Part shown: piece by piece, positions 11,177-28,778 of the stretch
Layout of the letters: each line of letters opens with the position of its first letter
Numbering within the stretch: the stretch's first letter is position 1
Assembly: GCA_035652955.1 (NCBI GenBank)
Contig: DASRCU010000238.1
Location: 1-55,764 of the forward strand
Reading direction: 5' to 3'
DNA: 55,764 nt
From: Verrucomicrobiia bacterium
GTDB lineage: Bacteria; Verrucomicrobiota; Verrucomicrobiia; Limisphaerales; UBA11358
Position numbers and translations under genes: made by a program
Notes under the pieces: model-generated
Told to the model about the DNA's origin: nothing
What the model saw: only the letters and a program-made list of their open reading frames with translations
Database searches by the model: none

Positions 11177-11188
11177 GAACATTTGTTC
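11177..11188. promoter_or_regulatory. Palindromic motif copy S1, GAACATTTGTTC
   Basis: Perfect GAACA-TT-TGTTC. It lies 136 nt upstream of the giant-protein ATG (11041) and 28 nt past the stop of the frameshifted small gene. Confidence 0.5.
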
Positions 11189-11215
11189 TACCCCCAACCG
11201 CCGCCGTTCATTCCG

Positions 11216-11585
11216 TCAGGGCAGTTCCAGCCGATAAAATGAGGTCGCCGAACGTGGCGTCAGCCCGTTGCTGAACCGGAATTCGTCGCGGACATCAAAC
11301 AGGTTGGTGGCAGGTGTGCCCAGGCTGAAGGGGCGACGCCAGATTGGTGTTGGCGAGAACCAGGTTGGTGCCGGGGATGATCGCCGAATTGAACACCGAC
11401 CGGGCTCGTTACCGCGGCAACGCCGTTGGCAGAGGGCAAGGGAACCTGGCCACCGCTATAATCCGCGCCGGAGAAATGCAGCATCCGATTTCCCAGCGCA
11501 GCCGGTGATACAGCAGCCCGCCCGCTAAAAACGCCAGCGCTCAGCGCGAAGACCAAGTTGAGGGCATTTGCGTTTCACGTTTCAT
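11216..11585 (-). pseudogene. Frameshifted small secreted-protein gene
   Basis: A protein-like reading needs three minus-strand frames. These are MKRETQ.. (ATG at 11585), then ..LNLVFALSAGVFSGRAAVSPAALGNRMLHFSGADYSGGQVPLPSANGVAAVTSPVGVQF, then ..AIIPGTNLVLANTNLASPL. The last segment is ..FSLGTPATNLFDVRDEFRFSNGLTPRSATSFYRLELP, with its stop at 11216-11218. The ORF track only shows fragments (11260-11556 and the tail of 11541-11903). Confidence 0.4.
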
Positions 11586-11602
11586 GCCCGGCGCTTTGCG
11601 TT

Positions 11603-12493
11603 TTACCGCCAGCCCGGAAAGCGATAGCCCTGATGAATGTATTCGTAATCCGGGCCGGATGTTTTGGCTCCCGGCGGCCCGGAAGTGCTGGGGGCGGTCT
11701 GGCCGCTGGCAATTCTCTGGCCGTATTGAATGATGGCTGTGTCCAGCCATTTGTGGCCTTCGGCGTGCCCATCGGCGTAGCCAAAGGTGCCCACCGCGCC
11801 GTGATACATCGCCGGCGAATCCACCCACTGGAACGGCTGCCACCACGCGGCCAGATTCCAGCTCACCACCCAACTGCCGTTGTTGTAACCGCGCGAGTCG
11901 CAATCTTCAATGAACACAAAGGTCTGCGCCGCATTTTGAATGCCCGAAAGTTTGGTGTAGCACTGATTGATGCCCCAGTAATCGCCGCCATGCGGGTCGC
12001 CGGTGATGTTTTGCGTTTTGGAATAACTGTCGTAAGCCCAGTGATTGCCGGGCGCATTGCGGGTGCGCAGGTCGCCTGGGCAATGATACACCGCCGCGTG
12101 GCGGGCATAGGCCGCCAGCGGATTATTGGTGCCGTTCAACGCCGCCTGCACCAGCTTTTCCGCCGCGTCTTCCGAAATGCCGGACTGATTCCACGGCGCG
12201 GTGGCGCCATTGAGCACCGGATTCCAGAAACCGCCGGCCTTGCCGTAAGCGACGATCTGGTCGTTGTTATCGCCGGCATACATGACAAACGCCAGCAACA
12301 ACTGCCGCTGATTGCTCACGCACACCGCTTGCGTGCCTTTGAGCTTGGCCCGCGCCAGCGCCGGCAGCAGCAGCGCCGCCAGAATGGCAATGATGGCAAT
12401 GACTACCAACAGTTCAATCAGGGTGAACCCTGGCGACCGTTGCCGGTGGTCAAATCGCGCGCCGACATTTTCTGTGTGGCCTGGGCGGATCAT
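11603..12493 (-). CDS. Prepilin-type N-terminal cleavage/methylation domain protein (pseudopilin-like), copy A
   Basis: [22 protein letters not shown]|[29 protein letters not shown]-terminal [14 protein letters not shown] motif. ATG at 12493. Confidence 0.9.
12353..12427 (-). repeat. Conserved 75-nt segment encoding [25 protein letters not shown] (dispersed repeat, copy A)
   Basis: My own alignment of the reverse complements of copies A and B shows only a handful of third-position differences. Confidence 0.7.
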
Positions 12494-12547
12494 AATTTCT
12501 TGCCAGAGGTGTCGTCAGCTTGCCTCGCGCCGCCAAGTCTGGCTATC

Positions 12548-12559
12548 GAACGTTTGTTC
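12548..12559. promoter_or_regulatory. Palindromic motif copy S2, GAACGTTTGTTC
   Basis: Flanked as C-GAACGTTTGTTC-G. It sits in the 323-nt divergent region, 55 nt upstream of the pseudopilin-like copy A ATG (12493) and about 260 nt upstream of the 12817 gene. Confidence 0.5.
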
Positions 12560-12816
12560 GAGGGTCCCTCGACGCTGCGACGCTGCCGAGGCAGTTTTCT
12601 TGCGCGACAATTTCCATCACTCGGTTTCGCCAGGGCGCACTGCCGCTCGCGGAGAATGGATTGGCACAGAGGAACGGAGCAGGTTCAATGCGGCCGAACG
12701 GCTGGGCGGTTTCGGTGCGGGTAAAGGGCGGCGGAGCGTTTCTTTGAAATTGTCATTGGACGTGCCGGGCTGATTTGGTTTAATTCAACCATCCCGCCCC
12801 TGTGCGGGAACAAATT

Positions 12817-14709
12817 ATGAAAAAAATTTTCATCTCTCTGCTGGCGCTGGCGTTGGTTACCGTGGTGCGCGCGGCCATTCCGCCGGCGGAAAATTTGCTG
12901 CCGGAGGACACGTTGCTGGTGCTCACCGTGCCGGATTTCACCCGGATGAAAAGCGCGGCGCAGGAATCGCCGCAATGGCAGTTCTGGAACGACCCGGCGA
13001 TGAAACCGTTCCACGACAAATTCATGGCCAAATTCAAGGAAACCTTCGCCGGCGCGTTGGAACAGGACCTGGGGGTGAAACTGTCCGACTTCGAGAATTT
13101 GCCGCAAGGCCAACTGACACTGGCCCTCACCCGGAACGGCTGGACCGGCAGCGACGATACGCATCAGCCGGGCGTGCTCCTGTTGCTGGACGCCGGAAGC
13201 CAGAGCGCTCTGCTCAAGACGAATCTGGCCGGGGTGGAAAAAAAATGGCGCGAGGCCGGCAAACCGGTACACACAGAAACCGTTCGCGGCGTGCCCTTCA
13301 CCGTCGTGCCGTTTTCCAGCAATGGCGTGCCCGGTCCGCTGGCCAAACTGTTTCCGCCGCCGCCGGCCGGTTCCGGAGCTCCACCGGAAAAGCCCCGGCA
13401 ACTGGTTGTCGGCCAGTTTGAATCGCTGCTGATTGCCGGCAATTCTCTGGACGCGGTGGAACCGGTGGTGGCGCATCTCTCCGGCGGGGGCGCGCCGGCC
13501 CTGGCCGACAACGAACAGTTTGCCGCCGACAAACTCGCGCAGTTGCGCGACCGGCCGTTGTACTACGGCTGGTTCAACGCCCAAAACTTTTTCACGGCAC
13601 TGGCGCGGAGGCTCCAGCCGGCGTCCGATGACCAGTCCTCGCCGGGTTTCCAGCCGCCGTGGGACCGAATCATCGCCGCCGCCGGTTTGACCGGCGTCAA
13701 GTCGGTGTGCTTTTCTTACCGGCAAACTCCCGAAGGCGCGCAGACGGATTTTTACCTCGCCGTTCCGCAATCCAGCCGGCGAGGCCTGACCGCCGTTCTT
13801 TCCGCGGCCCATGAATCGGCGGCGCCGCCGCCATTTGTGCCGGCCGACGCCGTGAAATTTTCACGCTGGCGTGTGGACGGTCGCAAGACTTGGGATGCCC
13901 TGCAGAAGATGATCGGAGACATTTCACCGGCGGCGCTGGCCGGCCTGAATTCGGTCATTGACCTGGCCAATGCCGCCGGCCAGCAAAACGACCCCTCATT
14001 CGACATCCGCAAAAACTTCATCGGCAATCTCGGCGACGACTTCATCAGTTACCAGAAGGTTCCGTTGGGCAAGACGCTCCAGGATTTGAACAACCCTCCG
14101 TCGCTGTTCCTGATCGGGGTCAACAACGGCGATCAGGCGGCCGCTGCCCTCAACAGCCTGGCGGTGCTGGCTTTGGGCCGCGGACAGGAATCGCCCAAAC
14201 CGCGTGAATTCCAAGGCCACAAAATCTACACCATCCGCCTGCCACACCCCCCGGGGACCGCGACGGATGCAGACGGCGCGGGACCGCGCTCGCTGTATTG
14301 CGTCGCCGGCAACGGGTATCTGGCATTGACGACGGACGTGACGATGATTGAAGAATTTCTCCGCAGCGCCGGCAAGCCCCCCCAACCGTTGAGCGGCACG
14401 CCGGGATTGATTGACGCCGCGCAACACGTCGGCGGCACCGGAGGCGGCATCTTCGGCTACAACAATCAAAGCCAGATCATGCGCTCGGTGTTCGCCGCCC
14501 TCAAAAATTCGGCCGGCACGGATCATCCCCTTTCAGCCGGTCCGCTGGCGGCGTTGCCCAGGGATTTCCGCGACTGGCTGGATTTTTCGCTCCTGCCCGA
14601 CTACGACCAGGTGGCACGGTATTTTTCCTTTTCCGTGTATGGCGGCAGCGCCTCGGCCGACGGTTTCACGTTCAAACAATTCACCCCGCGCCCGCCGGGA
14701 TTGAATTGA
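12817..14709 (+). CDS. Secreted hypothetical protein (about 630 aa)
   Basis: The ATG at 12817 gives MKKIFISLLALALVTVVRAA (signal peptide), then IPPAENLLPEDTLLVLTVPDFTRMKSAAQESPQWQFWNDPAMKPF. No catalytic motif recognised. A resemblance to DUF3352-type proteins rests on memory only. The ORF track begins at a GTG at 12802. Confidence 0.7.
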   Translation: MKKIFISLLALALVTVVRAAIPPAENLLPEDTLLVLTVPDFTRMKSAAQESPQWQFWNDPAMKPFHDKFMAKFKETFAGALEQDLGVKLSDFENLPQGQLTLALTRNGWTGSDDTHQPGVLLLLDAGSQSALLKTNLAGVEKKWREAGKPVHTETVRGVPFTVVPFSSNGVPGPLAKLFPPPPAGSGAPPEKPRQLVVGQFESLLIAGNSLDAVEPVVAHLSGGGAPALADNEQFAADKLAQLRDRPLYYGWFNAQNFFTALARRLQPASDDQSSPGFQPPWDRIIAAAGLTGVKSVCFSYRQTPEGAQTDFYLAVPQSSRRGLTAVLSAAHESAAPPPFVPADAVKFSRWRVDGRKTWDALQKMIGDISPAALAGLNSVIDLANAAGQQNDPSFDIRKNFIGNLGDDFISYQKVPLGKTLQDLNNPPSLFLIGVNNGDQAAAALNSLAVLALGRGQESPKPREFQGHKIYTIRLPHPPGTATDADGAGPRSLYCVAGNGYLALTTDVTMIEEFLRSAGKPPQPLSGTPGLIDAAQHVGGTGGGIFGYNNQSQIMRSVFAALKNSAGTDHPLSAGPLAALPRDFRDWLDFSLLPDYDQVARYFSFSVYGGSASADGFTFKQFTPRPPGLN

Positions 14710-14712
14710 ACT

Positions 14713-16488
14713 TCATTTCACCGGCAAGGTGATGCATACCGTCGTCCCGCGGCGGGGTTGCGAACGGACGCGGAGGGTTCCGTGATGCGTTTCGATGATG
14801 CGCCCGACGATGGCCAGGCCCAAACCGGTTCCTTTGGGTTTGGACGTGCTCAAGAGGGCCTTGAAGGCGCGGCGCTGGATTTCCTCACTCATGCCGCCGC
14901 CGGTGTCTTTGAATTCCACCGCCACCTGCGCCGGACTGACGACGCGGGTTTTGACGGTGAGGGTGCCGCCGTGGGGCATGGCTTCGGCCGCGTTGAGAAT
15001 GAGGTTCAAAAACGCCTGTTCCAATTGCGGCGCGTCCCCCATCACCGCCGGCAGCTCAGGTTGCAAATCGCGCACAAACCGGATGTGTTGGTGAGCCAGC
15101 TTGTGCCGCACGAGTAACCCCAGTTCATCAATGAGTTCGTTCAAATTCACCGGTGCCGGCTGCGGTTCGGTGGTGCGCGCAAAATCCAGAATCCGTTCAA
15201 CGATTTTGTTCAGATGATCAATTTTTTCGCCGAGGATGCGGGCATCGCGGGCGCGCGGGTCGCCGGCGGGAAATTTCAGGTTCAGCGAGTGGTACAGCAG
15301 CTTCATCACCGTGAGCGGATTGCGGATTTCGTGAGCGACTTCGGCGGCCAGCAGGCCGAGCGCGGACAGTTTTTCGTTCTGCCGCAATTGCTCCTCCACA
15401 TCCACCGCGCGTTCGTAAAGCTGTGCTCGTTGCAGGGCAATGGCCGACAATTCCGCCAGCGCGCTTAAAATGCGGATTTCCTCGTTTGAAAAATGGTAGG
15501 GCCGGCTGGTGTACACATTGAGCGCGCCGAGCGCCTCGCCGGCAAACAACAAAGGGACGCTCAACAGGGAAATCAACCCTTCGCGCCGGGCCACGTCCAC
15601 ATTCTGATAGCGGGTGTCCACCTGCACGTTGGGCACCTGCAGCGGTTTTTTCCGGCGCACGACGACGCCGAGCAGGCTTTCCTCCACGCTCAGGCGCGGT
15701 TTTTTCAAATACGCCCCGCCCGCGCCGTGGCTGGCGCGCAAATCCAGCCACTGGCGGCTTTCATCGAGCATCAGCAGGGAACACATTTTGGCGCGCATCA
15801 GACGGCAGGCTTCGCGCGTGATGGCCCGCAACGCCTCGTCGAGGTTCAGGGTGGAATTGATGGTCCGGCTCACGTTGATCAGCGATTCGAAGAGGCTGGC
15901 CTTCACGCGCAACTGTTCGTACCGCCAGGTGTGATGAATGACCATGGCAGCCTGCGCGGCCAGTTCCTGAAGCAGTTCCTCATCTTCAGCGCTGAAGGCG
16001 TCCGGGCGGTCCGAATCCACATTGAGCACGCCGCGGATTTCGCCGCCGACCTCCAGCGGCACGGCCAGTTCGGATCTTACGCCGCGCCGCACAGCGACAT
16101 AGCGCGCATCCCGCGCGACATCCCCCACCCGCGCCGGCCGGCCCGTGCGGACCACCCAGCCGGTAAGGCCCTCGCCCAGGTGCAATTTCAGTTTTGCCGC
16201 CGCCGCGGGCAGATTTTGTGAGGCGTGAATTTCCAGCAGGCCGGTGGTGGGGTTGAGCAGCGCGACCGAGCCGGAGGAGGCGCGCACCGCCCGCACGGCT
16301 TCGCGAACGATCCGTTGCAACGCCTCCTGCGGCTCCAGCGTCGAATGAATGACCTTGCTTACCTGATAGAGCAATTGCAGCCGTTCCAGACGCGAATCCA
16401 GACGGGTCGGAATGTCGTTCACCGTTTTCCTTTCCGATTTCAATTTTTTCGCCGCAGGCCACCGCCGGTTTGGACGCGAGCTTCGCAT
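14713..16488 (-). CDS. Cytoplasmic sensor histidine kinase with two GAF domains
   Basis: Two GAF-like blocks (one reads ALLNPTTGLLEIHASQNL...GLTGWVVRTGRPARVGD...ELAVPLEVGGEIRGVLNVD; a second similar block follows). H-box AAEVAHEIRNPLT. HATPase G-boxes DTGGGM and GTGLGLAIVGRIIETHHGTLRV. No transmembrane segment and no adjacent response regulator. Confidence 0.85.
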   Translation of the reverse strand: MRSSRPNRRWPAAKKLKSERKTVNDIPTRLDSRLERLQLLYQVSKVIHSTLEPQEALQRIVREAVRAVRASSGSVALLNPTTGLLEIHASQNLPAAAAKLKLHLGEGLTGWVVRTGRPARVGDVARDARYVAVRRGVRSELAVPLEVGGEIRGVLNVDSDRPDAFSAEDEELLQELAAQAAMVIHHTWRYEQLRVKASLFESLINVSRTINSTLNLDEALRAITREACRLMRAKMCSLLMLDESRQWLDLRASHGAGGAYLKKPRLSVEESLLGVVVRRKKPLQVPNVQVDTRYQNVDVARREGLISLLSVPLLFAGEALGALNVYTSRPYHFSNEEIRILSALAELSAIALQRAQLYERAVDVEEQLRQNEKLSALGLLAAEVAHEIRNPLTVMKLLYHSLNLKFPAGDPRARDARILGEKIDHLNKIVERILDFARTTEPQPAPVNLNELIDELGLLVRHKLAHQHIRFVRDLQPELPAVMGDAPQLEQAFLNLILNAAEAMPHGGTLTVKTRVVSPAQVAVEFKDTGGGMSEEIQRRAFKALLSTSKPKGTGLGLAIVGRIIETHHGTLRVRSQPRRGTTVCITLPVK

Positions 16489-16501: not shown

Positions 16502-17647
16502 TCATCTGACCCGCGCCGTGAGCCACAGGCCGGCCAGTCCAAAGATCAAATTCGGCAGCCACGCCGCCAGCCAGCCGGGCAGATGCCCGCCGGCGCCGAG
16601 CGCGTAAGCCACCTTCTGAACCACAAAAAAGGCGAAGCAGATGAACAGGCTGCCCGCCACGCCGGCAAACAAATTCCGGCGGCCCGACGCGGCGCCAAAC
16701 GGAATGGCCATCAGCACCACCACCAGGCAGGTCCACGGCGCCGCCAGCCGCGTGTGCAGTTCCGTCAACAGCCAGCCCGAATCCCCGCGCGCCCCGGCGC
16801 CGTCTCCAGTAAACTGCAGATGCGACAGAATGTCCGCAATCGAAATATCCGCCTTGTGTTTGCCGAGGCTCTCATAGGCGCTGATCTTCATTTCCACGGT
16901 AATCTGGCGCGGCGTTTCCCGGAAGGCCGGCAGGGTCAGGACGTTGGTTTCCGGCCGGGGCACAAAGGGGGACCGCTCATTGGCCTGGACGAATTCCTGC
17001 GCGTGATAAAACGTCCACTGGCCGTTGGTCCAGACCGCCCGCGCCGCTCGCAACACCCATTGCGAGCCGTCGGGCAGGGTTTGAATGACTTCCGGCGCGA
17101 TCAGTTCGGCGGCAGCGGGGCGAAATTCGTCAAACTTCCAAACGCGGCGCGCCGGGACGTTAACGAAGCCGTGAAACTGGCGGCGCATCGAAAAATCATC
17201 CGGCTTTTGCACGTAACGCTGCAAAATTTCTCGCGCCCAATCCGTGCTGCGCGGCACCACGTATTCGTTCAGCGTGAATACCGCCGCGCCGGCGACCAAT
17301 CCCACCAGGAAATACGGCGCGCAAATGCGCCAGAGGCTCACCCCCGCGGCGCGCATGGCGGTGAGTTCCTGATGGCGGGCATGATGGGTGAGCGCGAACA
17401 ACAGGGCCAGCAACAGTGCGATGGGCAGAATGGTCGCCAGAAATTCAGGCGTCATCGCCGCGACATATTCCAGCACGTCCGGCAGATGCAGTTTGCGCTC
17501 CTGCATTTCCTGAAGTTCGTTGAAGAGGTCCCACGAAATCCAGAACACCAGGAAACCGCCCAGAGCGTAGCCCAGCGGGGTGAGCAATTCGCGCAGCACG
17601 TATCGGTCCAACAACCGCATCGCGCCAGCGTAGTCGGGGCGGCTCAT
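16502..17647 (-). CDS. LptF/LptG-family (YjgP/YjgQ) LPS export permease
   Basis: MSRPDYAGAMRLLDRYVLRELLTPLGYALGGFLVFWISWDLF... shows the typical N-terminus and a six-transmembrane layout with a periplasmic middle domain. Confidence 0.8.
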   Translation of the reverse strand: MSRPDYAGAMRLLDRYVLRELLTPLGYALGGFLVFWISWDLFNELQEMQERKLHLPDVLEYVAAMTPEFLATILPIALLLALLFALTHHARHQELTAMRAAGVSLWRICAPYFLVGLVAGAAVFTLNEYVVPRSTDWAREILQRYVQKPDDFSMRRQFHGFVNVPARRVWKFDEFRPAAAELIAPEVIQTLPDGSQWVLRAARAVWTNGQWTFYHAQEFVQANERSPFVPRPETNVLTLPAFRETPRQITVEMKISAYESLGKHKADISIADILSHLQFTGDGAGARGDSGWLLTELHTRLAAPWTCLVVVLMAIPFGAASGRRNLFAGVAGSLFICFAFFVVQKVAYALGAGGHLPGWLAAWLPNLIFGLAGLWLTARVR

Positions 17648-17778: not shown

Positions 17779-20490
17779 TCAGCCGGGGCGTTCGCCGGTG
17801 CTGGAGGAGGCCGGTTTTACCAATTCAATCTTGACCAACTCCGCGCTGTGCGGGGCGACCGGCATGGAAAATTCGTTCCGGAATTTCCCCAAATCCTTCT
17901 GACGCCACAAATCGCGGACGATGTGTTCGCCGGAAATTTTCAGGTCGCTCCATTTGGCGGTGACGGTGAGAGTTCCATTCGTGCCGGTGTTGAACAGACC
18001 CACGGCGATTGAACCGTCTTGAAGCGGCTTGGCATAGACGCGCCAATCCTCGCCCCTGGCCACGCAGACGCCCGGTTGGCCGAGGGCATCCTGGTCCACG
18101 GCGAGCACTTCGGCGTTTTCCAGCAGATTCAAGGTGAAGGCGTCCAGACGGGTCAGGTCGTTGCCCAGCAGCAGCGGCGCCGAATCCAGGCACCAGAGCG
18201 TCAGGTGCGTGTATTCCTCGTCGGGCGTCAGACCGGGCTGACCGCGTTCGGCGTTGGCGATTTCAAGCATGTCCGGGTCGTTCCAATGACCGGGCCGGCA
18301 GAAACGCCTCCATTTTTCCTGGTCGAAGCCGTGAGTAATCATGGAGTGCCAGTTGGCCTTGATGTCCCCGGTGGTGCGCCAGCAGTTGGCCAGCGGGGTG
18401 ACGGCCGGGGCATTGGTGATGTTCAGGTTGTTGGACAGGCTGAAGACGATGTCACGTCCGCAATGCCGCAAGGCGTCGTACATTTCTTTGGTTTCGGGAT
18501 ATTCAATCGGGTTCCAGTCGTATTTCAAATAATCCACGCCCCAGGCGGCCCACTGTGTGGCGTCGTGGGTGGCGAAGTGATATGGGCCGATGGCCCAGGG
18601 CAGTTCCTTTTTGTTGAGGTGTCCGCGTTTGGGAATTGTCGGCGGCGACCACGCGCCATCGGGGTTTTCCGAACTGCCGCCGACGTGGTTGGCGTAGGAC
18701 GTCGTCCACGGCGTGGAGTAGATGCCGATTTTCAAACCCAGCGCGTGGACGGCGTCGCACAATTTTTTCATGTCGGGAAATTTTTCGTTGGGCTGGATGG
18801 CGTGGAAGGGTCCGCCGCGCCGGCCCTGCCAGGTGTCGTCAATGTTCACGTAAGTCCAACCGTAATTGATGAGGCCGGAGGAAACCATCGCCTGAGCATT
18901 GGCCAACACGATGGCCTGATTCACGCGGCCGGCGTAATGGTTCCAACTGTTCCAGCCCATCGGCGGCGTGAGGGCGATGGTTTCGCCAACGATGATCCGG
19001 AATTTCTTCTGATCCTCGCCCAGGGCGTTTTGCGCGCGCAGGGTGACCCGGTAATCCCCCGGCCGGGACAACATGCCGGTGATTTGACCGCTCTGCGGAT
19101 CCAGTTGCAAACCGGCCGGCAACCCGTCGGCGGAAAAAGTCATCGGCCGGTCGCCCGTCGCGGGAATGTGGTAAAGGAAGGGATGGTCCGGCCGGACGCC
19201 GAAGACATCCGGGCCGTTGATCCGGGGCGTGTGCGGGGCCGGCGGCGTGCGGATTTCCGCGGGTCGCGGGAAATCGCCGGAAGACACAGCAGAGGAGTTG
19301 GGGGGTGGATCAGCCGAAAATGGAAACCACAAAACAGGTTGCGTGATGGCGGTGTTGCGGCGCACTTCGGGATTGGACACATCGGCGGAAAGACTTTTCC
19401 AAAGGTTGAGATATTTGGGTTCGTGATAAGCCAGGCCGGCAAATAACAGACAGGGTTCTTGTCGCGGCCAACCGTTCCACGCCTGCACGTCTTTGGAATG
19501 GCCGTCGGCCAGCCATTTGTTCTTGTCTGCCAAATAGGGATACAAAAATTCCATCGCCCGTTTCATGCCGCGCCCGTCGGGCAGGGTGAAGGTCCACAAA
19601 TCGTTGGTGGCGGTCGAGAGCACCTGGCACAGCGTCGCCAGGTTGTCAAGTTGGAAAATGGAATAGCCGTAGGGTTTGGTGCGGGCCAGTTCGCGCGGAA
19701 AACTGCCGTCCAGCGCCATCTGATCCGGGAGGAAAACCTCCTGGAACCGGCGCCGGCATTCGGCCAGCGCGGCCTCGTCGCCGGTGAACTGAGCGAACAC
19801 CGCCACTTGCAGCCAGAAGGCCACGGCGTGATTGTTTTTGGCATTGGCTTCCTCGCGGCCGTTTTTGCTGGTCTGCATCCAGTGCAAATAATCGGCAAAC
19901 CATTTTTTCAGGCCGGCCAGCACCTCCGGCGGAAACGCCGGAGATTTTTCCATTGCCTCAATCGCGCGGGGCACTTCGATCAAATGCAACGTGTCAATGA
20001 TGCCAATGCCGCGGCCCGGTGACACGCCGGGAATGGCCTGGGCAAATTGCAGGTTGGGATTCATCCGCGTCTTGGGGTCCAGGAAAAACACGTGTAGCAG
20101 CTCAACGGCTTTGGTCACGTAACGGTCGTCGCCGGTGATTTGATAGGCGGCGCCGAGGGCGGCCACCGCCTCGTGCAGTTCGTGCAGGCACCGCCGGTGG
20201 GCGTTGAAATTGGCCGGGTTGGAATAGCCGTCGCGGCGGATGTACGGCAGGCCGTTGCTCGTGTTCGGATTGGGCCACCAGTAATCGCCGTTGGAGTAGT
20301 AATCGTTCGGGCCGCCCTCGCTCAACGGGGCGCGATATTTCGTGATGGTCAGGGGCGGCTGTTTCAACGCGGCGGCGGCGGCCTGCAAAATGCGAGGCCG
20401 CTCCTCCGCCGCCACATCCGGCGGCAGTGCAGCCGGTGCGGGCGGCAAACACCCAGAGACCAGTGCAACAAGCATGATGGCGGTTTTCAT
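17779..20490 (-). CDS. Secreted multidomain enzyme: polysaccharide-lyase-like (alginate-lyase type) N-terminal domain, Ig-like linker, and GH27 alpha-galactosidase-like C-terminal domain
   Basis: The ATG at 20490 gives MKTAIMLVALVSGC. The N-terminal domain carries NDYYSNGDYWWPNPNTSNGLPYIRRDGYSNP. The middle region carries PMTFSADGLPAGLQLDPQSGQITG. The C-terminal domain carries GWNSWNHYAGRVNQ...YGWTYVNIDDTWQ...GVDYLKYDWNP. Confidence 0.75.
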   Translation of the reverse strand: MKTAIMLVALVSGCLPPAPAALPPDVAAEERPRILQAAAAALKQPPLTITKYRAPLSEGGPNDYYSNGDYWWPNPNTSNGLPYIRRDGYSNPANFNAHRRCLHELHEAVAALGAAYQITGDDRYVTKAVELLHVFFLDPKTRMNPNLQFAQAIPGVSPGRGIGIIDTLHLIEVPRAIEAMEKSPAFPPEVLAGLKKWFADYLHWMQTSKNGREEANAKNNHAVAFWLQVAVFAQFTGDEAALAECRRRFQEVFLPDQMALDGSFPRELARTKPYGYSIFQLDNLATLCQVLSTATNDLWTFTLPDGRGMKRAMEFLYPYLADKNKWLADGHSKDVQAWNGWPRQEPCLLFAGLAYHEPKYLNLWKSLSADVSNPEVRRNTAITQPVLWFPFSADPPPNSSAVSSGDFPRPAEIRTPPAPHTPRINGPDVFGVRPDHPFLYHIPATGDRPMTFSADGLPAGLQLDPQSGQITGMLSRPGDYRVTLRAQNALGEDQKKFRIIVGETIALTPPMGWNSWNHYAGRVNQAIVLANAQAMVSSGLINYGWTYVNIDDTWQGRRGGPFHAIQPNEKFPDMKKLCDAVHALGLKIGIYSTPWTTSYANHVGGSSENPDGAWSPPTIPKRGHLNKKELPWAIGPYHFATHDATQWAAWGVDYLKYDWNPIEYPETKEMYDALRHCGRDIVFSLSNNLNITNAPAVTPLANCWRTTGDIKANWHSMITHGFDQEKWRRFCRPGHWNDPDMLEIANAERGQPGLTPDEEYTHLTLWCLDSAPLLLGNDLTRLDAFTLNLLENAEVLAVDQDALGQPGVCVARGEDWRVYAKPLQDGSIAVGLFNTGTNGTLTVTAKWSDLKISGEHIVRDLWRQKDLGKFRNEFSMPVAPHSAELVKIELVKPASSSTGERPG

Positions 20491-20548: not shown

Positions 20549-20609
20549 AGGTGGGGAAAGCTTGACCGGATCGTGCGCGTCGGTTTGATTGGATTCCACC
20601 AGCATTGTT

Positions 20610-22013: not shown

Positions 22014-22294
22014 AACGTGCAACAGAGGAGGAGTTTGACGGCCCTTTTCTCCGCGCCGTTTTTGCAGGCCAGTGGTTTGGTGGTCTTCGTTAAATCGCCA
22101 CTGCTCACGATGATATTTCCGTTGTCCGCCTCAACAACAGGTCCTTCGGTTGATAAACCGCAAGGCGGATTCGGCGGCGGGCAACAGGGCGGTGCCTGCT
22201 GAAGCCAGTCCCAGCCATCGTGGCCGCGAAAAATTTGTCCGTCGGAGTCAGACATCGTTTTGTATTTTCCCAAAGTTGCCTCGCGTGGGGAATT

Positions 22295-22306
22295 GAATGT
22301 TTGTTC
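22295..22306. promoter_or_regulatory. Palindromic motif copy S4 (one mismatch), GAATGTTTGTTC
   Basis: 70 nt upstream of the GH2-like gene ATG. It is inverted relative to S5, which starts 29 nt downstream. Confidence 0.45.
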
Positions 22307-22323
22307 GCTCGCGGCCCGGGCTA

Positions 22324-22335
22324 GAACAAACGTTC
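22324..22335. promoter_or_regulatory. Palindromic motif copy S5, GAACAAACGTTC
   Basis: 41 nt upstream of the GH2-like gene ATG (22376). Confidence 0.5.
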
Positions 22336-22375
22336 AGTAGCCGGTGGGGCTGTTCGCGGCAACCATGAGGCGAAA

Positions 22376-25300
22376 ATGAGTTGTCGTGAATCAGGTCGGC
22401 ACGGGCGAGTTCCGGGGAAATTTTTTCTTGGAGCGCTGTGCGCCGTCTTGTTGCCCGGATGGCACAGCGCGGCTGCCGGGCGGCTGACGCTCAATTTCGA
22501 TCCGGACTGGAAGTTCCTCAAGGCCGACCCGCCCGGTGCGCAGGAGCCGGGTTTTGACGACCGTCGTTGGGCCACGGTGTCTGTGCCGCATACTTACGAT
22601 GAGGACGATTCGTTCAATGCGCTTTCGCCGGGCCGGATGCTCGGTGAGACCAATCTCTGGTCGGGGCGCACGTGGTATCGCAAGACGTTCACCCTGCCGG
22701 ACGATTTCAAAGGCAAAAAAATTTACGTGGAATTCGAGGCAGTGCGGCAGGTCGCCGAGGTTTATTGCAACGGCCACTTTCTCGGCGCGTGCAAAAACGG
22801 GTTCCTGCCCTTTGGCTTTGACCTGACGCCCTACCTGCGCTTCGGCCAATCGAACGTGCTGGCGGTGATGTGCGACAACCGCTTCATGATCAGCCAGGTC
22901 GGTGCCGGCGCCGGCGATCCGCCGGGAACCAACGAGACCTTGTCCGCCTACGAAAGGCGCGTGAATGCCTCGTTGCCCGAGGGCGTGGACGAAATTCAAG
23001 CCGACCAGATTCCCTGGAACAATCCCCAGTGGCATCCGCCGCTGGGAGGCATTTACCGCAACGTGCGGCTTTACGTGACGGATCCGCTGCACCTTTCGCT
23101 GCCGCTTTACGATTTTCTCCAAACCACCGGTCCTTACGTTTACGCCACGGAAATTTCCTCCCGCTCCGCGAACATCGGCGTGACAGTGCCCGTGGAAAAC
23201 GGACGCGCGACAGGCGAAAAAATCCAGGTCAGCGCGAAAATTCTGGATGGCGAGGGCCAACCCGTGCTCACGTTGGCTCAAACCAACGAAATCGCCGCCG
23301 GTGCGCAGAAACAATTCCAGCTTTCCGGCACGCTGGAACATCCGCAACTGTGGGAGCCGGATTATCCCTGTCTTTACCGCGTGATTTGCTCGGTCAGCGT
23401 CGGTGGTCAAATCGTGGATTCATGCGAAATTCCACTGGGCATCCGCGCCGTGCATTGGGACGTGAAAACCGGCTTCTGGATCAACGGCCATCCGCTCCGC
23501 CTGCACGGCTGGGGTCAGCGCCCGACGGATGAATGGCCCGGCCTCGGCTCGGCGCAGCCGGATTGGCTCCATTTTTACACCCTCTGGCTGATGAAAAATG
23601 CCGGCGGCAATTTCATTCGCTGGGGCCATTGCGCCGGCGGACCGGCCATGATTCGCGCCGCCGATGAACTGGGGCTGATTACCGACCAGCCGGGCGTGGA
23701 CGGCGAATCCGACACCGTCGGCGCGGCCTGGAAAATTCGCGCCGCGGCATTCCGCGACGCGCTGATTTACTTCCGCAACGACCCGTCAATTCTGATCTGG
23801 GAAGGCGGCAACCAGAAAGTCACCCGCGCTCATGCCGCCGAATTGCGCCGCCTCGTGGAAACGTACGATCCCCACGGCGGACGCGCCCTCACCTTTCGCC
23901 GCGCCGACGCCGTTACCGGTCAATTCATGGACATTACCCTCGGCACCGAAGGCAGCCACGAAGTCCCGCGCCTGCCACTCGTCGAAGGGGAATACGACCG
24001 CGAAGAATCGCCGCGCCGGGTGTGGGACGATTTTTCGCCGCCGGATTTCGGCTACCCGCAGGCCCAAGGCCAGACTTATGATCTGCCCGCCGAGCAATAC
24101 GCCGTCAGCGAAATTCGGCAATACGTGGACAAAGTGTGGTCCAATCCCGGCAGTTGTGGCGGCGCCAACTGGATTTTTTCCGACTCCACCAGCGGCGGTC
24201 GCAACACCATCGAAGTGGCCCGCGCCAGCGGCGAAGTGGACGGCGTGCGGCTGCCAAAGGAGGCGTATTATGTCTGTCAAACCCTGTTCCGCGCCGATCC
24301 GCAGGTGCACATCATCGGGCACTGGAATTATCCGCCAGGCACGAAAAAAACAATTTACGTCGTGTCCAACTGCCGGGAGGTGGAATTGTTCGTGAACGGG
24401 AAATCGCTCGGTCGCGGCCGGCGCTCCGACGAATTTCTCTTTACGTTTCCCGACGTGGCCTGGGCGCCGGGCGAAATCAAAGCCGTCGCCAGCAACGACG
24501 GTGTGCCTCTGGCCACTAACGCCATTCATACCGCCGGACCGCCGGTGGCACTGCGGCTCACCTCCATCACCGGGCCGGACGGTTTGCTGGCCGATGGTTC
24601 GGACGTGGCGCTGATTGACGTGGAAGCGGTGGACGCCGCCGGCCAGCGCTGTCCCACCTTTCAGCGCCGCGTGGATTTCACCTGCACCGGCCCGGCTGTT
24701 TGGCGCGGCGGTTACAACAGCGGTCTGGCCGGTTCCATCGGCCAAAATCACCTGGAACTGGAATGCGGCATCAACCGGGTGGCGGTGCGCTCCACACTGG
24801 CGCCCGGCAGAATCATCGTAACGGCCACTTGTCCCGGCCTGAAAACCGGCCGCGTTGAAATTTTGTCCCATGCATTTCCGCTGACCGGCGGTTATTCACG
24901 CACGCCGCCGCCGCTGCCGGCCGTTACCCTCCCGGCGGTTCCGCCCGATTGGAGTCGTTTGACCACCGCGGTTCCGCCGATGACGGTGACCCCGGCGCCC
25001 GTCACGGCGGCCCGGGCCGGCCGATTTACCGAAACCTTCAGCTACTCCGGCCCGACCGAACGGGTCCACGTGGAGCTTAACGCCGCCGACGGCCGAACTG
25101 TTTATTGCGACCGCGATTACACCTTTGTGGATTTGCCCAGGGAATTGCAGGGCGCCGACTGGGTGCAGGCGGCTCAGGACGACCGGCTTTACAGTGCCGC
25201 CGACTTGATGCAGCTTGCCGCCCCGGCCGGCACCACGATTTATGTGGCGCACGACGCGCGGTTGCCGTGGCCGGAATGGTTACGACGGCAGTTCCAACCC

Positions 25301-25474
25301 ACGAAGGAAAACGTGGCGATCAACGGGCAGCCGATGAAATTGTTCAAACGCCGGTTGCAAAATGAGGAAAGCCTGACGCTCGGCTCCAATACCGACGATG
25401 TTCCGATTCCGCGTGGCAACATGTATGTCGTTTTTTTGAAAGGCGCCGGCCCGGCGTTGAGCGCCAGCCGATGA
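22376..25474 (+). CDS. GH2-fold glycoside hydrolase-like protein with a C-terminal accessory domain
   Basis: GH2 sugar-binding-domain signature DDRRWATVSVPHTYDED...WYRKTFTLPDDFKGKKIYVEFEAVRQVAEVYCNGHFLG. A TIM-barrel-like region with non-canonical motifs follows (see findings). 1032 aa. Confidence 0.8.
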   Translation: MSCRESGRHGRVPGKFFLGALCAVLLPGWHSAAAGRLTLNFDPDWKFLKADPPGAQEPGFDDRRWATVSVPHTYDEDDSFNALSPGRMLGETNLWSGRTWYRKTFTLPDDFKGKKIYVEFEAVRQVAEVYCNGHFLGACKNGFLPFGFDLTPYLRFGQSNVLAVMCDNRFMISQVGAGAGDPPGTNETLSAYERRVNASLPEGVDEIQADQIPWNNPQWHPPLGGIYRNVRLYVTDPLHLSLPLYDFLQTTGPYVYATEISSRSANIGVTVPVENGRATGEKIQVSAKILDGEGQPVLTLAQTNEIAAGAQKQFQLSGTLEHPQLWEPDYPCLYRVICSVSVGGQIVDSCEIPLGIRAVHWDVKTGFWINGHPLRLHGWGQRPTDEWPGLGSAQPDWLHFYTLWLMKNAGGNFIRWGHCAGGPAMIRAADELGLITDQPGVDGESDTVGAAWKIRAAAFRDALIYFRNDPSILIWEGGNQKVTRAHAAELRRLVETYDPHGGRALTFRRADAVTGQFMDITLGTEGSHEVPRLPLVEGEYDREESPRRVWDDFSPPDFGYPQAQGQTYDLPAEQYAVSEIRQYVDKVWSNPGSCGGANWIFSDSTSGGRNTIEVARASGEVDGVRLPKEAYYVCQTLFRADPQVHIIGHWNYPPGTKKTIYVVSNCREVELFVNGKSLGRGRRSDEFLFTFPDVAWAPGEIKAVASNDGVPLATNAIHTAGPPVALRLTSITGPDGLLADGSDVALIDVEAVDAAGQRCPTFQRRVDFTCTGPAVWRGGYNSGLAGSIGQNHLELECGINRVAVRSTLAPGRIIVTATCPGLKTGRVEILSHAFPLTGGYSRTPPPLPAVTLPAVPPDWSRLTTAVPPMTVTPAPVTAARAGRFTETFSYSGPTERVHVELNAADGRTVYCDRDYTFVDLPRELQGADWVQAAQDDRLYSAADLMQLAAPAGTTIYVAHDARLPWPEWLRRQFQPTKENVAINGQPMKLFKRRLQNEESLTLGSNTDDVPIPRGNMYVVFLKGAGPALSASR

Positions 25475-25489
25475 GGCCGGCACGCTATC

Positions 25490-25526
25490 CAGCAGGCCCG
25501 CCGGAGGCCGGTGCTGCCCGCTTTTC
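25490..25526 (+). terminator. Candidate rho-independent terminator after the GH2-like gene
   Basis: CAGCAGGCC-CGCCGGA-GGCC(GG)TGCTG forms a 9-bp stem with a 2-nt bulge, followed by CCCGCTTTTC. Confidence 0.35.
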
Positions 25527-25575
25527 ATTCGAGGACGTGGTTGAAAACGCCGCCGTGGAAATTTACTCTTGAATC

Positions 25576-28500
25576 GTGGCCGCCTCGTTTCTTCACCGCG
25601 CAGGATTCCTGGCCGGAGGGCTGATGGCACTGGCGCTTTCGGCCAACGGCGCCGATTCCCTCTGGTATGAACGCGCCTGGCAATCCGCCGAAGGGTTGCC
25701 GGACAACAGCGTCAGCGGCGTGGCGCAAACGCCCGACGGTTTTTTGTGGGTGGGCACCGCCGGCGGCCTGATGCGCTTCGACGGCGTGCGCTTCGAGGAA
25801 TTTCCGCTGGTGACCCTCGACGGCGTGCCCAATCACGTCGTACGCGCCCTGTTGCTGGACGCGCACGGCCGCCTTTGGCTGGGCATGGATCGCGGCCCCA
25901 TCGTGTGCCTTGCGCCCCATGCGGTGCAGGTGTTCACCAACGTGCCCGATGCCCGGGCTTCTTATCTGGCCGAAGACGCCGCCGGCGCCGTCTGGGTCAC
26001 CTACACCGACGGCGGCCTGATTCGCGTCCGGGACGGACAAGTGACGGTTTTCAACAGCGCCTCCGGCTGGCCGGAATCGGGTCTGTCCTCCCTGACCAGC
26101 GACCGCGATGGCCGGCTTTGGTTTGGCAAGGGGAATCGGGTGGGCATTTTCCAGCAGGGCAAGTTTCAAACGCTCTTGACATTTCCCGAAACGGTTTGGT
26201 GCCTGGCCCGGCGCCGAGCCGGCGGCATCTGGCTGTGCGCCGGACACCGCTTGTTGAGTTACGATGGGGGCGGAACACCACGCCAGTTCGGCGAGTTGCC
26301 CGTCCGCCCGTCCGGTATCGAAGTCACGGTGCTGTTCGAGGATTCCTCCGGCGCGTTGTGGATTGGCACGGCGGCCAACGGTCTGTTCCGCTGCGACGGC
26401 ACAAACACCACCGCCGTGCCGACCTCCTATCGCAGCATTGCCTGCCTGGCTCAGGACCGCGAGGGCAATCTCTGGGTAGGCACCGGCGGCGGCGGCCTGG
26501 ATCGGTTGCGACCGCGCATCATCGGTCTGCTGGGCACTGACACCGGCCTGCCGTACGAATCCGTCCGCTCCATTTGCGAAGACACCGCGGGCGCCATCTG
26601 GGTGACGATGCAAAACGGACTGTTGGCGCGCTGGCAGAGCAATGTTTGGAGTCAATTCCCTGAAAATCCCGGAGCTCCGACGGGTTTCTTCTCCTGTGTG
26701 GCAGCCGACCCGCATGGCGGATTGTGGATTGGCACCCGCGACCACGGATTTTATCACTGGCGCGACGGAGAATGCCGGAACTGGCGACAAGCCGACGGGC
26801 TGGGCAGCGACGACGTGCGCTGCATCCTCCAAACCCGGAACGGGGATGTGTACATTTCCACCGACGCGCCGTCGCATCCCTCGCCATTCATCCGCGAGGC
26901 GGTGGTCTCTTCGGGATTCAGCGCCCGGCTGCAACGGTTGCGGGACGGCCGTCTGCAACCCCTGGCGATGTCTTTGCAAACCCGCTCCCTTCGCGCCCTG
27001 GTTGAGGACGCCGCGGGGCGCGTCTGGGCGGGCAGCGCCGACGGCCGCCTGCTGCGCGTGGACGGCGACCGGCTGGTGGACGAAACCCCCGGAGTAACCA
27101 ACCGGTTACTTTCAATTCGCTGCCTGTGCGCCACCCTCGACGGCAGCCTGTGGATCGGTTACGCCGGCTGGGGCCTGGGCTGGCTCAAGGACGGCCATTT
27201 TGCCCGGATCACCTCCGAACAAGGTCTGTATGACGATTACGTCTCGCAACTGGTGGACGACGGCCGCGGCTGGCTGTGGTGCGCCGGCAACCACGGCATT
27301 TTTGAAGTGAAACTGGAACAACTCCGCGCCGTGGCGGAAGGACGCCAAAACCGCGTGCGTTCCCTGGCCTACAGCCGCGGCGAAGGCTTTCCGAATCTGC
27401 AACCCAATTATGAAAACGTGCCGGGCGCGCTGCGCAGCCGGGACGGCCGGCTCTGGTTCCCCATGCACACCGGTCTGGCCGTCATTCATCCCGATCGCGT
27501 TCCCAGCGGCGCCCCTCCGCCGCCAGTGCGGATCGAACAGGTCACAGTGGACGGTCGCGTCGTCGCCCGTGACGATCGTTACCTGCCGTCCGCCACGGAT
27601 CGGGAGTCCGCGCCGCTTGATCTGAGTTCATCCAACGTCGTGCTGCGTCTTCCGCCCCGGTTCCGGAAACTGGATTTCGTTTTCACCGCGCTCAGTTTCA
27701 CGGCGCCGGAAAACGTGGAGTTTGAATACCGCCTGCGCGGCCTGGACGATAACTGGGTCGAAGGCGGCACGGCGCGCGGCGTCAGTTATCCGCATCTGCC
27801 GCCGGGCAACTACCGCTTTGAAGTGCGCGCCGCCAGTCTCACCGATCAGTGGAGTCCGCAAAGCGCGGCGCTGAACTTTGTGGTGCGGCCGTTTTTCTGG
27901 CAAACCTGGTGGTTCCGCGCCGGCGGCGTGGTCATGTTCACGTTGAGCGTGGCCGGTCTGGTGCGCTACGTTTCCTTCCGGCGGTTGCATCGCCGGTTGC
28001 GTGCCCTGGAACAGCAGGCCGCGCTGCAGCGGGAGCGCGCCCGGATCGCCAAGGATATCCACGACGACCTCGGCGCTCATTTGACGCAAATCGCTTATCT
28101 GGGGGAGTTGGCCCAGCAGGACTTGATGGGGAAATCCCGACCGGCGGCCGATTCCGGCGCTTCGGCCGCTGAAAACGGGTGGCACGCGCAAACGCTGGAG
28201 CGCATCGGAAAAATTTCCGCCACCGCCCGGCAGGCCGTCCGCGCGCTCGATGAAATCGTCTGGGCGGTCAACCCGCGCAACGATACGCCGGCCCATTTGA
28301 TTGATTACGCCGGACAATTTGCCCTGGATTACCTGCGCACCGCCGGCATCCGCTGCCGCCTGGATTTTCCCGAACAAAGTCCGGCGCGCGAACTGTCCAC
28401 CGACCTGCGTCACAATTTGTTCCTGGTTATCAAGGAAGCGTTGCACAACATCGTCAAACACGCGCACGCCACGGAGGTTTGGCTGCGCGCCCGGTTCGAT

Positions 28501-28719
28501 CTCCGGGGATTGGAAATGGTCATCGAAGATAACGGCTGCGGTTTTGAGCATGCGCCTGACGACGCGCTGGCCGACGGTTTGCGCAACATGCAGCAGCGCA
28601 TGAACGATATCGGCGGCGATTGCCGGTGGGAAAGTCAATCTGGCCGCGGCACGCGGGTGACACTCCATCTGCCCTGGCCGGAGGAGCACCCGGCGCCAAA
28701 CATTATCCGTGAAACGTGA
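25576..28719 (+). CDS. Sensor histidine kinase with a periplasmic two-component-regulator-propeller (Reg_prop) and Y_Y_Y domain, and a HisKA_3 plus HATPase_c core
   Basis: GTG start. Repeated propeller units (AEGLPDNSVSGVAQTPDGFLWVGTAGGLMRFDG and others). Y_Y_Y block FEYRLRGLDDNWVEGGTARGVSYPHLPPGNYRFEVRA. Transmembrane segment WWFRAGGVVMFTLSVAGLV. H-box RERARIAKDIHDDLGAHLTQI. ATPase region VIEDNGCGF...GRGTRVTLHLP. Confidence 0.9.
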   Translation: MAASFLHRAGFLAGGLMALALSANGADSLWYERAWQSAEGLPDNSVSGVAQTPDGFLWVGTAGGLMRFDGVRFEEFPLVTLDGVPNHVVRALLLDAHGRLWLGMDRGPIVCLAPHAVQVFTNVPDARASYLAEDAAGAVWVTYTDGGLIRVRDGQVTVFNSASGWPESGLSSLTSDRDGRLWFGKGNRVGIFQQGKFQTLLTFPETVWCLARRRAGGIWLCAGHRLLSYDGGGTPRQFGELPVRPSGIEVTVLFEDSSGALWIGTAANGLFRCDGTNTTAVPTSYRSIACLAQDREGNLWVGTGGGGLDRLRPRIIGLLGTDTGLPYESVRSICEDTAGAIWVTMQNGLLARWQSNVWSQFPENPGAPTGFFSCVAADPHGGLWIGTRDHGFYHWRDGECRNWRQADGLGSDDVRCILQTRNGDVYISTDAPSHPSPFIREAVVSSGFSARLQRLRDGRLQPLAMSLQTRSLRALVEDAAGRVWAGSADGRLLRVDGDRLVDETPGVTNRLLSIRCLCATLDGSLWIGYAGWGLGWLKDGHFARITSEQGLYDDYVSQLVDDGRGWLWCAGNHGIFEVKLEQLRAVAEGRQNRVRSLAYSRGEGFPNLQPNYENVPGALRSRDGRLWFPMHTGLAVIHPDRVPSGAPPPPVRIEQVTVDGRVVARDDRYLPSATDRESAPLDLSSSNVVLRLPPRFRKLDFVFTALSFTAPENVEFEYRLRGLDDNWVEGGTARGVSYPHLPPGNYRFEVRAASLTDQWSPQSAALNFVVRPFFWQTWWFRAGGVVMFTLSVAGLVRYVSFRRLHRRLRALEQQAALQRERARIAKDIHDDLGAHLTQIAYLGELAQQDLMGKSRPAADSGASAAENGWHAQTLERIGKISATARQAVRALDEIVWAVNPRNDTPAHLIDYAGQFALDYLRTAGIRCRLDFPEQSPARELSTDLRHNLFLVIKEALHNIVKHAHATEVWLRARFDLRGLEMVIEDNGCGFEHAPDDALADGLRNMQQRMNDIGGDCRWESQSGRGTRVTLHLPWPEEHPAPNIIRET

Positions 28720-28766
28720 CGGGTTTCGGCCTCAATCAAATTTGCGTGGCGGGATTTGTGCGGGCT

Positions 28767-28778
28767 GAACATTTGTTC
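28767..28778. promoter_or_regulatory. Palindromic motif copy S6, GAACATTTGTTC
   Basis: In the 89-nt gap between the sensor kinase stop (28719) and the regulator ATG (28809). The extended form is CTGAACATTTGTTCAAT. Confidence 0.5.

Follow-up and report, generated by a model that had tools for sequence, protein, structure and literature searches.

The stretch of DNA analyzed here (hereafter the window) comprises 55,764 nucleotides of contig DASRCU010000238.1 from a Verrucomicrobiia bacterium of the Limisphaerales (GenBank assembly GCA_035652955.1); its G+C content is 60% and about 91% of it is coding. Between 11 and 29 kb it carries a recurrent palindrome with the core GAAC-N4-GTTC in front of genes for glycan-degrading enzymes, surface proteins and a response regulator, and this element, its promoter context and its putative regulator are described below. 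The gene map was drawn from Pfam annotation of the open reading frames (ORFs) of the window, with start codons refined via translation, and the scan of the source organism for the motif covered the 55.8-kb window. The genes on which the argument turns (GH, glycoside hydrolase family) are these.

6340 to about 7100, minus strand: N_methyl/DUF1559-like gene (second pseudopilin-like gene), downstream of the giant PATR gene
7136-11041, minus strand: giant PATR-repeat surface protein, target gene (ATG 11041 after start refinement)
11603-12493, minus strand: pseudopilin-like gene A with a prepilin N-methylation motif, target gene (ATG 12493)
17779-20490, minus strand: lipoprotein with an alginate-lyase fold and GH27, target gene (refined ATG 20490, lipoprotein signal)
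20610-22013, plus strand: GH29 alpha-L-fucosidase, target gene (start refined to MKQFIISGF)
22376-25474, plus strand: GH2-family glycosidase, target gene (site 5 upstream)
25576-28719, plus strand: HK1, sensor kinase (Reg_prop beta-propeller, Y_Y_Y, HisKA_3, HATPase)
28809 or 28824 to 29453, plus strand: RR1, response regulator of the NarL/VraR class (receiver domain REC and GerE helix-turn-helix)

The palindrome occurs among these genes at six places.

Site 1: 11175-11190 (core 11177-11188), minus strand; reads taGAACAAATGTTCaatggg towards the giant PATR gene; exact, intergenic
Site 2: 12546-12561 (core 12548-12559), minus strand; reads tcGAACAAACGTTCgatagc towards pseudopilin-like gene A; exact
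Site 3: 20535-20550 (core 20537-20548), no strand assigned; common to the divergent lyase/GH27 and GH29 genes; exact
Site 4 (distal): 22295-22306, minus strand; one mismatch (GAATGTTTGTTC), with a -10-like GAAAAT at 22264-22269 directed away from GH2
Site 5: 22322-22337 (core 22324-22335), plus strand; reads taGAACAAACGTTCagtagc towards GH2; exact
Site 6: 28765-28780 (core 28767-28778), plus strand; reads ctGAACATTTGTTCaatggc; between HK1 and RR1; exact

The giant PATR gene and the N_methyl/DUF1559-like gene (6340-11041) probably form one operon driven from site 1. Five of the six sites are exact copies of GAACRTTTGTTC, at 11177(+), 12548(+), 20537(-), 22324(-) and 28767(+), against a mean of 0.05 in dinucleotide-preserving shuffles, none of 100 of which reached five; the coordinates and statistics of the preliminary description, which had drawn attention to the palindrome, were correct. 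One-mismatch matches, of which 0.73 are expected by chance, number two in the window. The intergenic copy at 22295 (GAATGTTTGTTC) had been listed in the preliminary description, and the other, at 48966 (GAGCATTTGTTC) inside an oxidoreductase gene, had not; the latter lies within a coding region and alters a base of the GAAC core, and was rejected as a chance match. None of the six sites of the 11-29 kb cluster lies in coding sequence. Measured to the start codon, the distance is 135 nt for the giant PATR gene (ATG 11041), 54 nt for pseudopilin-like gene A (ATG 12493), and, on the two sides of site 3, 46 nt for the lyase/GH27 gene (ATG 20490) and 61 nt for the GH29 gene (ATG 20610). The GH2 gene (ATG 22376) has its proximal site 40 nt and the distal one 69 nt away, and the site in front of RR1 is 30 nt from ATG 28809 or 45 nt from the second Met at 28824. 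The assertion that every copy is non-coding and lies upstream of a gene therefore stands for the six sites of the cluster, with the reservation, discussed below, that the distal copy at 22295 is probably not the site of GH2.

A search with HK1, restricted to one genome per species, gave a sample of 80 kinase-anchored loci (1.31 Mb) that was not selected for the motif. All 80 come from Verrucomicrobiota metagenome-assembled genomes (MAGs), mostly Limisphaerales/Pedosphaera-like or 'subdivision 3'; their kinases are at most 51% identical to HK1, and there are many paralogues per genome. The exact 12-mer occurs seven times in these loci (in L005, L066, L060 and L056), where about 0.3 copies would be expected in 1.3 Mb from a rough estimate that assumes uniform composition. 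The looser pattern GAAC-RWWY-GTTC has 13 matches in the 1.31 Mb, all within 7 of the 80 loci; 12 of them fall in intergenic DNA or at most 90 nt from a gene start, which together make up 18% of the bases, and the thirteenth is situated at a kinase-regulator junction. The regulator beside the kinase has the recognition helix LSTVR(A/T)HLH in every one of these seven loci. The exhaustive pattern scan that had been proposed for the motif has in this way yielded both enrichment and confinement to non-coding DNA.

The same gene families carry the site in other loci. By blastp, L005 has a divergent pair of lyase (72% identical) and GH29 (60%) genes with a site between them at 1936, an arrangement also found with its site in L091, L104 and L129; GH2 orthologues (56-60% identical) in L005, L066 and L012 have a site just upstream; and in L005 and L066 the pseudopilin-like orthologues (48-49% identical) and the giant gene have a site each. 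The positions orthologous to site 1 upstream of the giant genes of L005, L066 and L056 read GAACGAATGTTC or a one-mismatch variant of it. When the region upstream of the pseudopilin-like gene was aligned with its counterparts in L005, L066, L056 and L060, the motif was the only conserved block, and the same was true of the alignments upstream of GH2 and upstream of the regulator gene. Phylogenetic footprinting, which the preliminary description had named as a check, is accordingly in favour of the motif, in relatives that share only about 50% identity in their sensor kinase.

A metagenome scan with the 19-mer TAGAACAAACGTTCARTRG as query returned 59 contigs, of which about 50 are verrucomicrobial in composition and have their sites upstream of the same gene families, and five of low G+C look like chance matches. 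The contigs often hold two to four sites each. Across the loci, the genes downstream of sites belong to the GH2 (24), pseudopilin-like (about 22), lyase/GH27 (8) and regulator (6) families, and giant PATR genes account for at least 11, with a few further ones among the unannotated downstream ORFs. Pseudopilin-type genes appear to stand in tandem arrays with a site of their own each, one per gene and spaced by about 1.0-1.15 kb. Spacing of this array type is seen in L097 (4790, 5945 and 6999), L116 (1269, 2405 and 3410) and L128 (1091 and 2143), and both sites of L128 precede genes whose products bear a prepilin motif or a signal peptide. One of the contigs, the 8.3-kb L109 (Ga0209581_1006707), is 99.87% identical to positions 19906-28233 of the window and, judged by that identity, represents the window's own population, of which it is the only trace in the searchable collections; exact-protein look-ups with GH2 and MnmG gave no match. 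The motif is neither as frequent in coding regions as outside them nor part of a repeat resembling repetitive extragenic palindromes (REP), and it is conserved upstream of orthologous genes; on this comparative evidence we regard it as a real, conserved cis-regulatory element.

Full-text literature searches gave no description of the motif or of the regulon and nothing on regulators of Verrucomicrobial glycan loci, in line with the earlier statement that no described regulator with this site was known in this lineage; what that statement had left unmentioned is the identity of the core with a LexA box. GAAC-N4-GTTC is the LexA box consensus of Firmicutes (Cheo box), and the exact 12-mers are found in the literature only as SOS boxes of the Bacillus phage SPbeta and of Staphylococcus aureus. 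That the sites described here are LexA (SOS) boxes is nevertheless hardly credible, and this reading was rejected on gene context: not one SOS gene is present among about 100 downstream genes, Pfam annotation finds no lexA or recA gene in the window, and the motif tracks a NarL-type regulator. The LexA motif of Verrucomicrobia is reportedly TGTTC-N4-GAACA (Erill et al. 2016), with the arms reversed.

The anatomy of the site was derived from 51 unique sites whose choice did not depend on the search pattern. In full, the site is a palindrome of 16 bp, T(T/A)GAAC-RWWY-GTTCAA, followed on the gene-proximal side only by T-R-G-C, so that the flank A-A-T-R-G-C is directional; the extension of the palindrome beyond the 12-mer, which had been remarked on from the window copies, is therefore real. 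The central dinucleotide has no fixed orientation, being AA in 28 and TT in 23 of the sites relative to transcription. Past the motif, an nAnnnT hexamer starts at 24-26 nt on at least one side of 95 of 99 sites (background 0.18 per side), and after de-duplication it is found at offset 25 in 30 of 58 sites as against about three at each other offset. All six sites of the window obey this spacing. The corresponding putative promoter elements in the window, with the transcription start sites (TSSs) they predict, are given here; that of site 4 was listed above.

11146-11151, minus strand: -10-like TAAGCT, 25 nt past site 1; predicted TSS about 11139, leader about 98 nt
12517-12522, minus strand: -10-like CAAGCT, 25 nt past site 2; predicted TSS about 12510
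20506-20511, minus strand: -10-like TACGGT, 25 nt past site 3 on the lyase/GH27 side; predicted TSS about 20499, ATG 20490
20562-20567, plus strand: -35-like TTGACC, 13 nt past site 3 on the GH29 side; the site is thereby centred at about -54.5 relative to GH29
22361-22366, plus strand: -10-like AACCAT, 25 nt past site 5; predicted TSS about 22373, 3 nt before ATG 22376
28803-28808, plus strand: -10-like TACTTT, 24 nt past site 6; predicted TSS about 28815

The fixed distance to a hexamer, the likeness of GAAC to the -35 element of extracytoplasmic function (ECF) sigma factors and the TGGC in the promoter-side flank, as in a sigma-54 -24 element, would also suit an alternative-sigma promoter element, and the recurrence of the motif could reflect a repeat of the REP type or a miniature inverted-repeat transposable element (MITE). 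Both are very improbable. The core is two-fold symmetric with its central AA/TT in either orientation, the 25 nt that separate it from the -10-like hexamer exceed what a -35 element would allow, neither a conserved GC 10 nt after TGGC nor a conserved -10 of the CGTC type is seen, and the loci contain no gene for a sigma factor or an enhancer-binding protein; the sigma-54 and ECF readings were rejected on spacing and symmetry. As for repeats, the similarity between motif copies stops within about 20 bp, there is no longer, hairpin-prone unit, and an Rfam search of the window returned a tRNA-Gln only, with no match at the motif; together with the fixed distance to the -10-like element, these observations led to the rejection of the REP/MITE-like repeat.

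If the hexamer is taken as the -10 element, the motif would occupy about -49 to -38, with its centre at about -43.5 of the predicted TSS, and the T-R-G of the flank would fall at -35 to -33, where the sigma-70 -35 hexamer has TTG, which predicts a degenerate -35. On the GH29 side, the centre is predicted one helical turn further up, at about -54.5, and TTGAC(C/G) is kept at that same offset in L005, L091, L104 and L129. A scan for consensus sigma-70 promoters found none at the motif-bearing genes, a result that is compatible with activator dependence and by itself no evidence for it. Since the site stands at a fixed distance from the -10-like hexamer and abuts a weak -35, its geometry argues for an activator site built into the promoter architecture rather than a generic operator. 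The same positions have to be weighed for a repressor, in which case RR1 would bind and repress, the genes being de-repressed when the kinase is inactive or the regulator dephosphorylated. Most of the sites are only 30-60 nt from start codons, which is typical of repressor operators too, and the TSSs used here are predicted. Repressor operators, however, are as a rule variable in position and extend over the -10 or the start, whereas these sites keep 24-26 nt to the -10-like hexamer and lie against the -35 of promoters in which good -35 hexamers are absent; the site on the GH29 side, one helical turn further up, likewise suggests activation. We therefore judge repression to be quite improbable.

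Most of the leaders that follow from these promoters are predicted to be short (7-20 nt) apart from those of GH2. At 24 sites upstream of GH2 orthologues (L005, L066, L091, L131 and others), the GH2 ATG is within about 3 nt of the predicted TSS, and the GH2 mRNAs are predicted to be leaderless or nearly so. For RR1, the predicted TSS at about 28815 points to the second ATG, 28824, as the start of translation.

The distal copy at 22295 seems to have a history of its own. In L091, the closest relative, a divergent GH3-like gene without a counterpart in the window has this one-mismatch variant in front of it, and L131 has the variant upstream of GH2; the minus strand of the window spacer 22014-22255 resembles the C-terminus of a minus-strand gene in both loci. 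The copy is probably a relic of a divergent promoter, left after deletion of the divergent GH3-like gene, rather than the site of GH2, at whose promoter an auxiliary role is possible. A 152-aa minus-strand ORF (21800-22255) was considered as a target gene and rejected; it is similar only to antisense translations of GH29 and to a C-terminal gene fragment in L091 and L131, and reads as a gene remnant.

The regulator gene preceded by site 6 encodes a protein with a Response_reg (4.6e-26) and a GerE (8.8e-17) domain, the closest solved homologues of which are VraR, DevR, NarL and DesR (E-values 1e-34 to 1e-25); its recognition helix reads LSTVRAHLH. The periplasmic part of the cognate kinase HK1 (Reg_prop, Y_Y_Y) matches sensor domains known from Bacteroides hybrid two-component systems (4a2l, 3v9f and 3va6), and the matches of its kinase core are DevS, VraS and DesK. 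A gene for a NarL-type regulator follows the kinase gene in nearly all of the 80 loci, and GAAC-N4-GTTC is found beside it only in loci with a regulator that shares 67% or more identity with RR1. The helix LSTVR(A/T)HLH and the motif occur together in 10 of 10 loci, window included, and in none of about 65 paralogue loci; metagenome contigs with an RR1 orthologue (L099, L111, L113 and L124) have this helix as well. A GAAC-RTTY-GT(T/C)C site is kept between the kinase and regulator genes of L056, L006, L003, L012 and L060, and a site at this place is also present in L090, L113 and L124, which makes at least nine loci with the window. RR1 is the only DNA-binding protein common to the orthologous loci. 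Because the motif tracks the recognition helix and precedes the regulator gene itself, RR1 is favoured as its presumptive binder, and the site between HK1 and RR1 would be autoregulatory, such a site being the usual signature of an autoregulated factor in comparative genomics.

The preliminary description had read the motif as the operator of a dimeric regulator and had named the two NarL-type regulators of the window as candidates. The first point is borne out by enrichment, footprints and co-occurrence with the regulator, and can be sharpened, as argued from the promoter geometry, towards an activator site. The second holds for RR1 (28.8 kb), which tracks the motif, and fails for RR2, the regulator of a second system, which does not; RR2 has the helix DGTVRWHLR and no GAAC-N4-GTTC site beside its gene.

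50.7-54.4 kb: second system, HK2 (PA14, HisKA_3) and RR2, then pseudopilin-like gene B and a CBM20 protein

Several observations weigh against RR1 as the activator acting at these sites. Several long metagenome loci have a site upstream of GH2, giant or pseudopilin-like genes and no homologue of HK1 or RR1 within about 10 kb, and in L107 a site is located close to a paralogous regulator whose helix differs; the regulon is accordingly dispersed, and co-localization with the two-component genes is not universal. The co-occurrence of helix and motif is due in part to shared ancestry within one orthologous group. The assignment of the GH2 promoter implies a leaderless mRNA, and the -10 assignment uses a minimal nAnnnT pattern in a phylum whose promoter rules are not experimentally established. 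The first two of these observations, that is, motif-bearing genes in loci of at least 10 kb without HK1/RR1 and the L107 site, would be expected if a different factor encoded elsewhere, such as a global carbohydrate regulator, bound the motif and the link to HK1/RR1 were one of synteny only, and the fact that each genome was inspected as fragments also leaves room for such a factor. This alternative is unlikely: the site directly precedes the regulator gene in the nine or more loci mentioned, even with differing neighbours; the kinase-anchored paralogue loci lack the motif though they contain similar cassettes of pseudopilin and giant-protein genes; no DNA-binding gene other than RR1 is common to the loci; and one group of paralogous regulators, distinct in its helix, has a palindrome with other arms, GGCA-RWWT-TGCC, placed in the same geometry.

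We propose, as the probable explanation of these data, that the motif is the site of a phosphorylated RR1 dimer acting, with HK1 as its partner, as a class II-type activator of glycan and surface-protein genes in a soil or freshwater Verrucomicrobium. The periplasmic beta-propeller/Y_Y_Y part of HK1 would sense a glycan, presumably an oligosaccharide signal, and HK1 would then phosphorylate RR1. The RR1~P dimer would dock on the 16-bp palindrome and recruit RNA polymerase to otherwise weak promoters by class II-type activation, so that GH2, the lyase/GH27 gene, the GH29 fucosidase, the pseudopilin-like protein and the giant PATR gene with the second pseudopilin-like gene would be turned on. 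RR1 would also switch on its own gene (positive autoregulation). Activation as the effect of RR1 is what we infer from the arrangement of the sites.

The differently armed palindrome belongs to a paralogue group whose regulators have a YSTVHTHIE helix, with ATCGGCA-RWWT-TGCCGAT sites in four of six loci. These sites (L016 12971; L073 6555 and 7505; L076 6454 and 7471; L078 1291) have the same spacing to a -10-like hexamer except L076 6454, and lie upstream of the group's own regulator gene (L016) or of genes for a 313-aa protein and for proteins of about 700 aa with a signal peptide (L073, L076 and L078). In the second system of the window, a perfect palindrome, CACAATTGTG, is found at 54500-54509 between RR2 and pseudopilin-like gene B, with GATAGT 25-26 nt after it; it is possible that this is the RR2 site in the geometry of the GAAC motif, though its one copy against 2.2 expected at up to one mismatch is not significant alone. 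Two TCAATTGA palindromes follow the regulator gene in L026. An unsupervised palindrome search across all paralogues gave 14 loci as against five in the control, and eight of the 14 belong to the RR1 group. A family-wide design may be put forward tentatively, with a chance a little short of even, in which dozens of beta-propeller/Y_Y_Y or PA14 sensors would each have a NarL-type regulator, a 4-(A/T-rich 4)-4 palindrome of its own at about -43.5, and its own cassette of pseudopilin, PATR and carbohydrate-active enzyme genes. Beyond the RR1 group only the GGCA group is convincing, and the family-wide picture is plausible, not established.

The remaining features of the neighbourhood are listed for completeness.

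12802-14709, plus strand: gene of no assigned family
14713-16488, minus strand: GAF histidine kinase
16502-17647, minus strand: LptF/G

The spacer between GH2 and HK1 (25475-25575) has a GC-rich hairpin followed by a T-run, and in addition TTGAAA-N17-TACTCT, both read by eye and unscored by the promoter scan; it could hold a terminator followed by a separate constitutive HK1 promoter. An island of low G+C (43-48% against 60% for the window) extends over 31913-35739 and contains mnmG/gidA (31988-33952) and pgi (34138-35739). It starts right behind tRNA-Gln(ttg) (31913-31986), the only tRNA gene of the window, and could be a horizontally replaced segment inserted beside tRNA-Gln. The ORF of ribosomal protein S2 (38200-39411) has about 144 residues ahead of the Pfam S2 domain, so that either its start has been over-called or its N-terminus is unusually extended. 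Near the second system, a 365-aa plus-strand ORF (49297-50394) covers 49395-50037, and a 178-aa minus-strand ORF (50038-50574) is without a Pfam match and may be spurious.

To our knowledge, the way in which Verrucomicrobiota sense and import glycans without SusC/SusD is poorly understood, and we know of almost nothing on the transcriptional regulation involved. The system outlined here would supply a concrete regulon, in which a kinase resembling those of hybrid two-component systems (HTCS) and its NarL-type partner are tied to fucosidase, GH2, lyase/GH27, pseudopilin-like and giant PATR genes. The pseudopilin-like and giant PATR proteins are predicted to be part of a glycan-capture apparatus. 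Published work on pilins and glycans fits this idea: a pulG-like pseudopilin of Verruconatronum, one with 67 homologous proteins encoded in the genome, belongs to a gene cluster upregulated on alginate (PMC13274419), and a type IV-like pilus system of Akkermansiaceae has been tied to fucose-rich glycans (PMC13174399). The motif itself offers a simple handle for annotating regulons of this kind in soil, peat and freshwater MAGs. The sites also suggest a first look at the promoter architecture of the lineage, with an nAnnnT -10, a degenerate -35 and possibly leaderless GH2 mRNAs. Should the family-wide design prove true, it would amount to a Verrucomicrobial counterpart of the polysaccharide utilization loci (PUL) and HTCS of Bacteroidetes, with a code leading from helix residues to arm bases. 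The value of these results is insight into an understudied phylum rather than a new mechanism.

Parts of the proposed system resemble several that are well known. Regulators of the LuxR/FixJ/NarL family that bind palindromes overlapping the -35 region include LuxR (lux box) and TraR (tra box), whose sites are centred at -42.5 and which exert class II activation; RR1 shares with them a GerE-type helix-turn-helix, a dimer-sized palindrome and a predicted centre at about -43.5 abutting a weak -35. It differs in being a response regulator controlled by phosphorylation instead of a quorum-sensing receptor, and in its site, which is of 16 bp rather than 18-20 bp, has another sequence and is positioned from predicted TSSs. 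VraR/LiaR, DevR (DosR), NarL and DesR have the same REC and GerE architecture and HisKA_3 kinases; these systems have autoregulated operons and inverted-repeat sites, of which the NarL heptamers TACYYMT and the 20-bp DosR box are unlike GAAC-N4-GTTC. Their kinases sense envelope stress, redox, nitrate or temperature through small or membrane-embedded sensors, whereas the sensor of HK1 is a periplasmic beta-propeller domain about 750 residues long. The Firmicutes LexA box has the identical core, with exact 12-mers published as SOS boxes, yet here SOS genes are missing, the link is to a NarL-type regulator and the geometry is fixed and of the activator type rather than that of a repressor operator; the likeness is most readily taken as a coincidence. 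The Bacteroides HTCS of polysaccharide utilization loci, such as BT4663, share with HK1 the periplasmic sensor domain, and as in those loci HK1 and RR1 adjoin the glycoside hydrolase and lyase genes they apparently control and have many paralogues per genome. In the HTCS, however, kinase, receiver and AraC-type helix-turn-helix are fused in one protein, while HK1 ends after its HATPase domain and is served by a separate NarL-type regulator, and the apparent targets of RR1 are pseudopilin-like and giant PATR proteins in place of SusC/SusD pairs.

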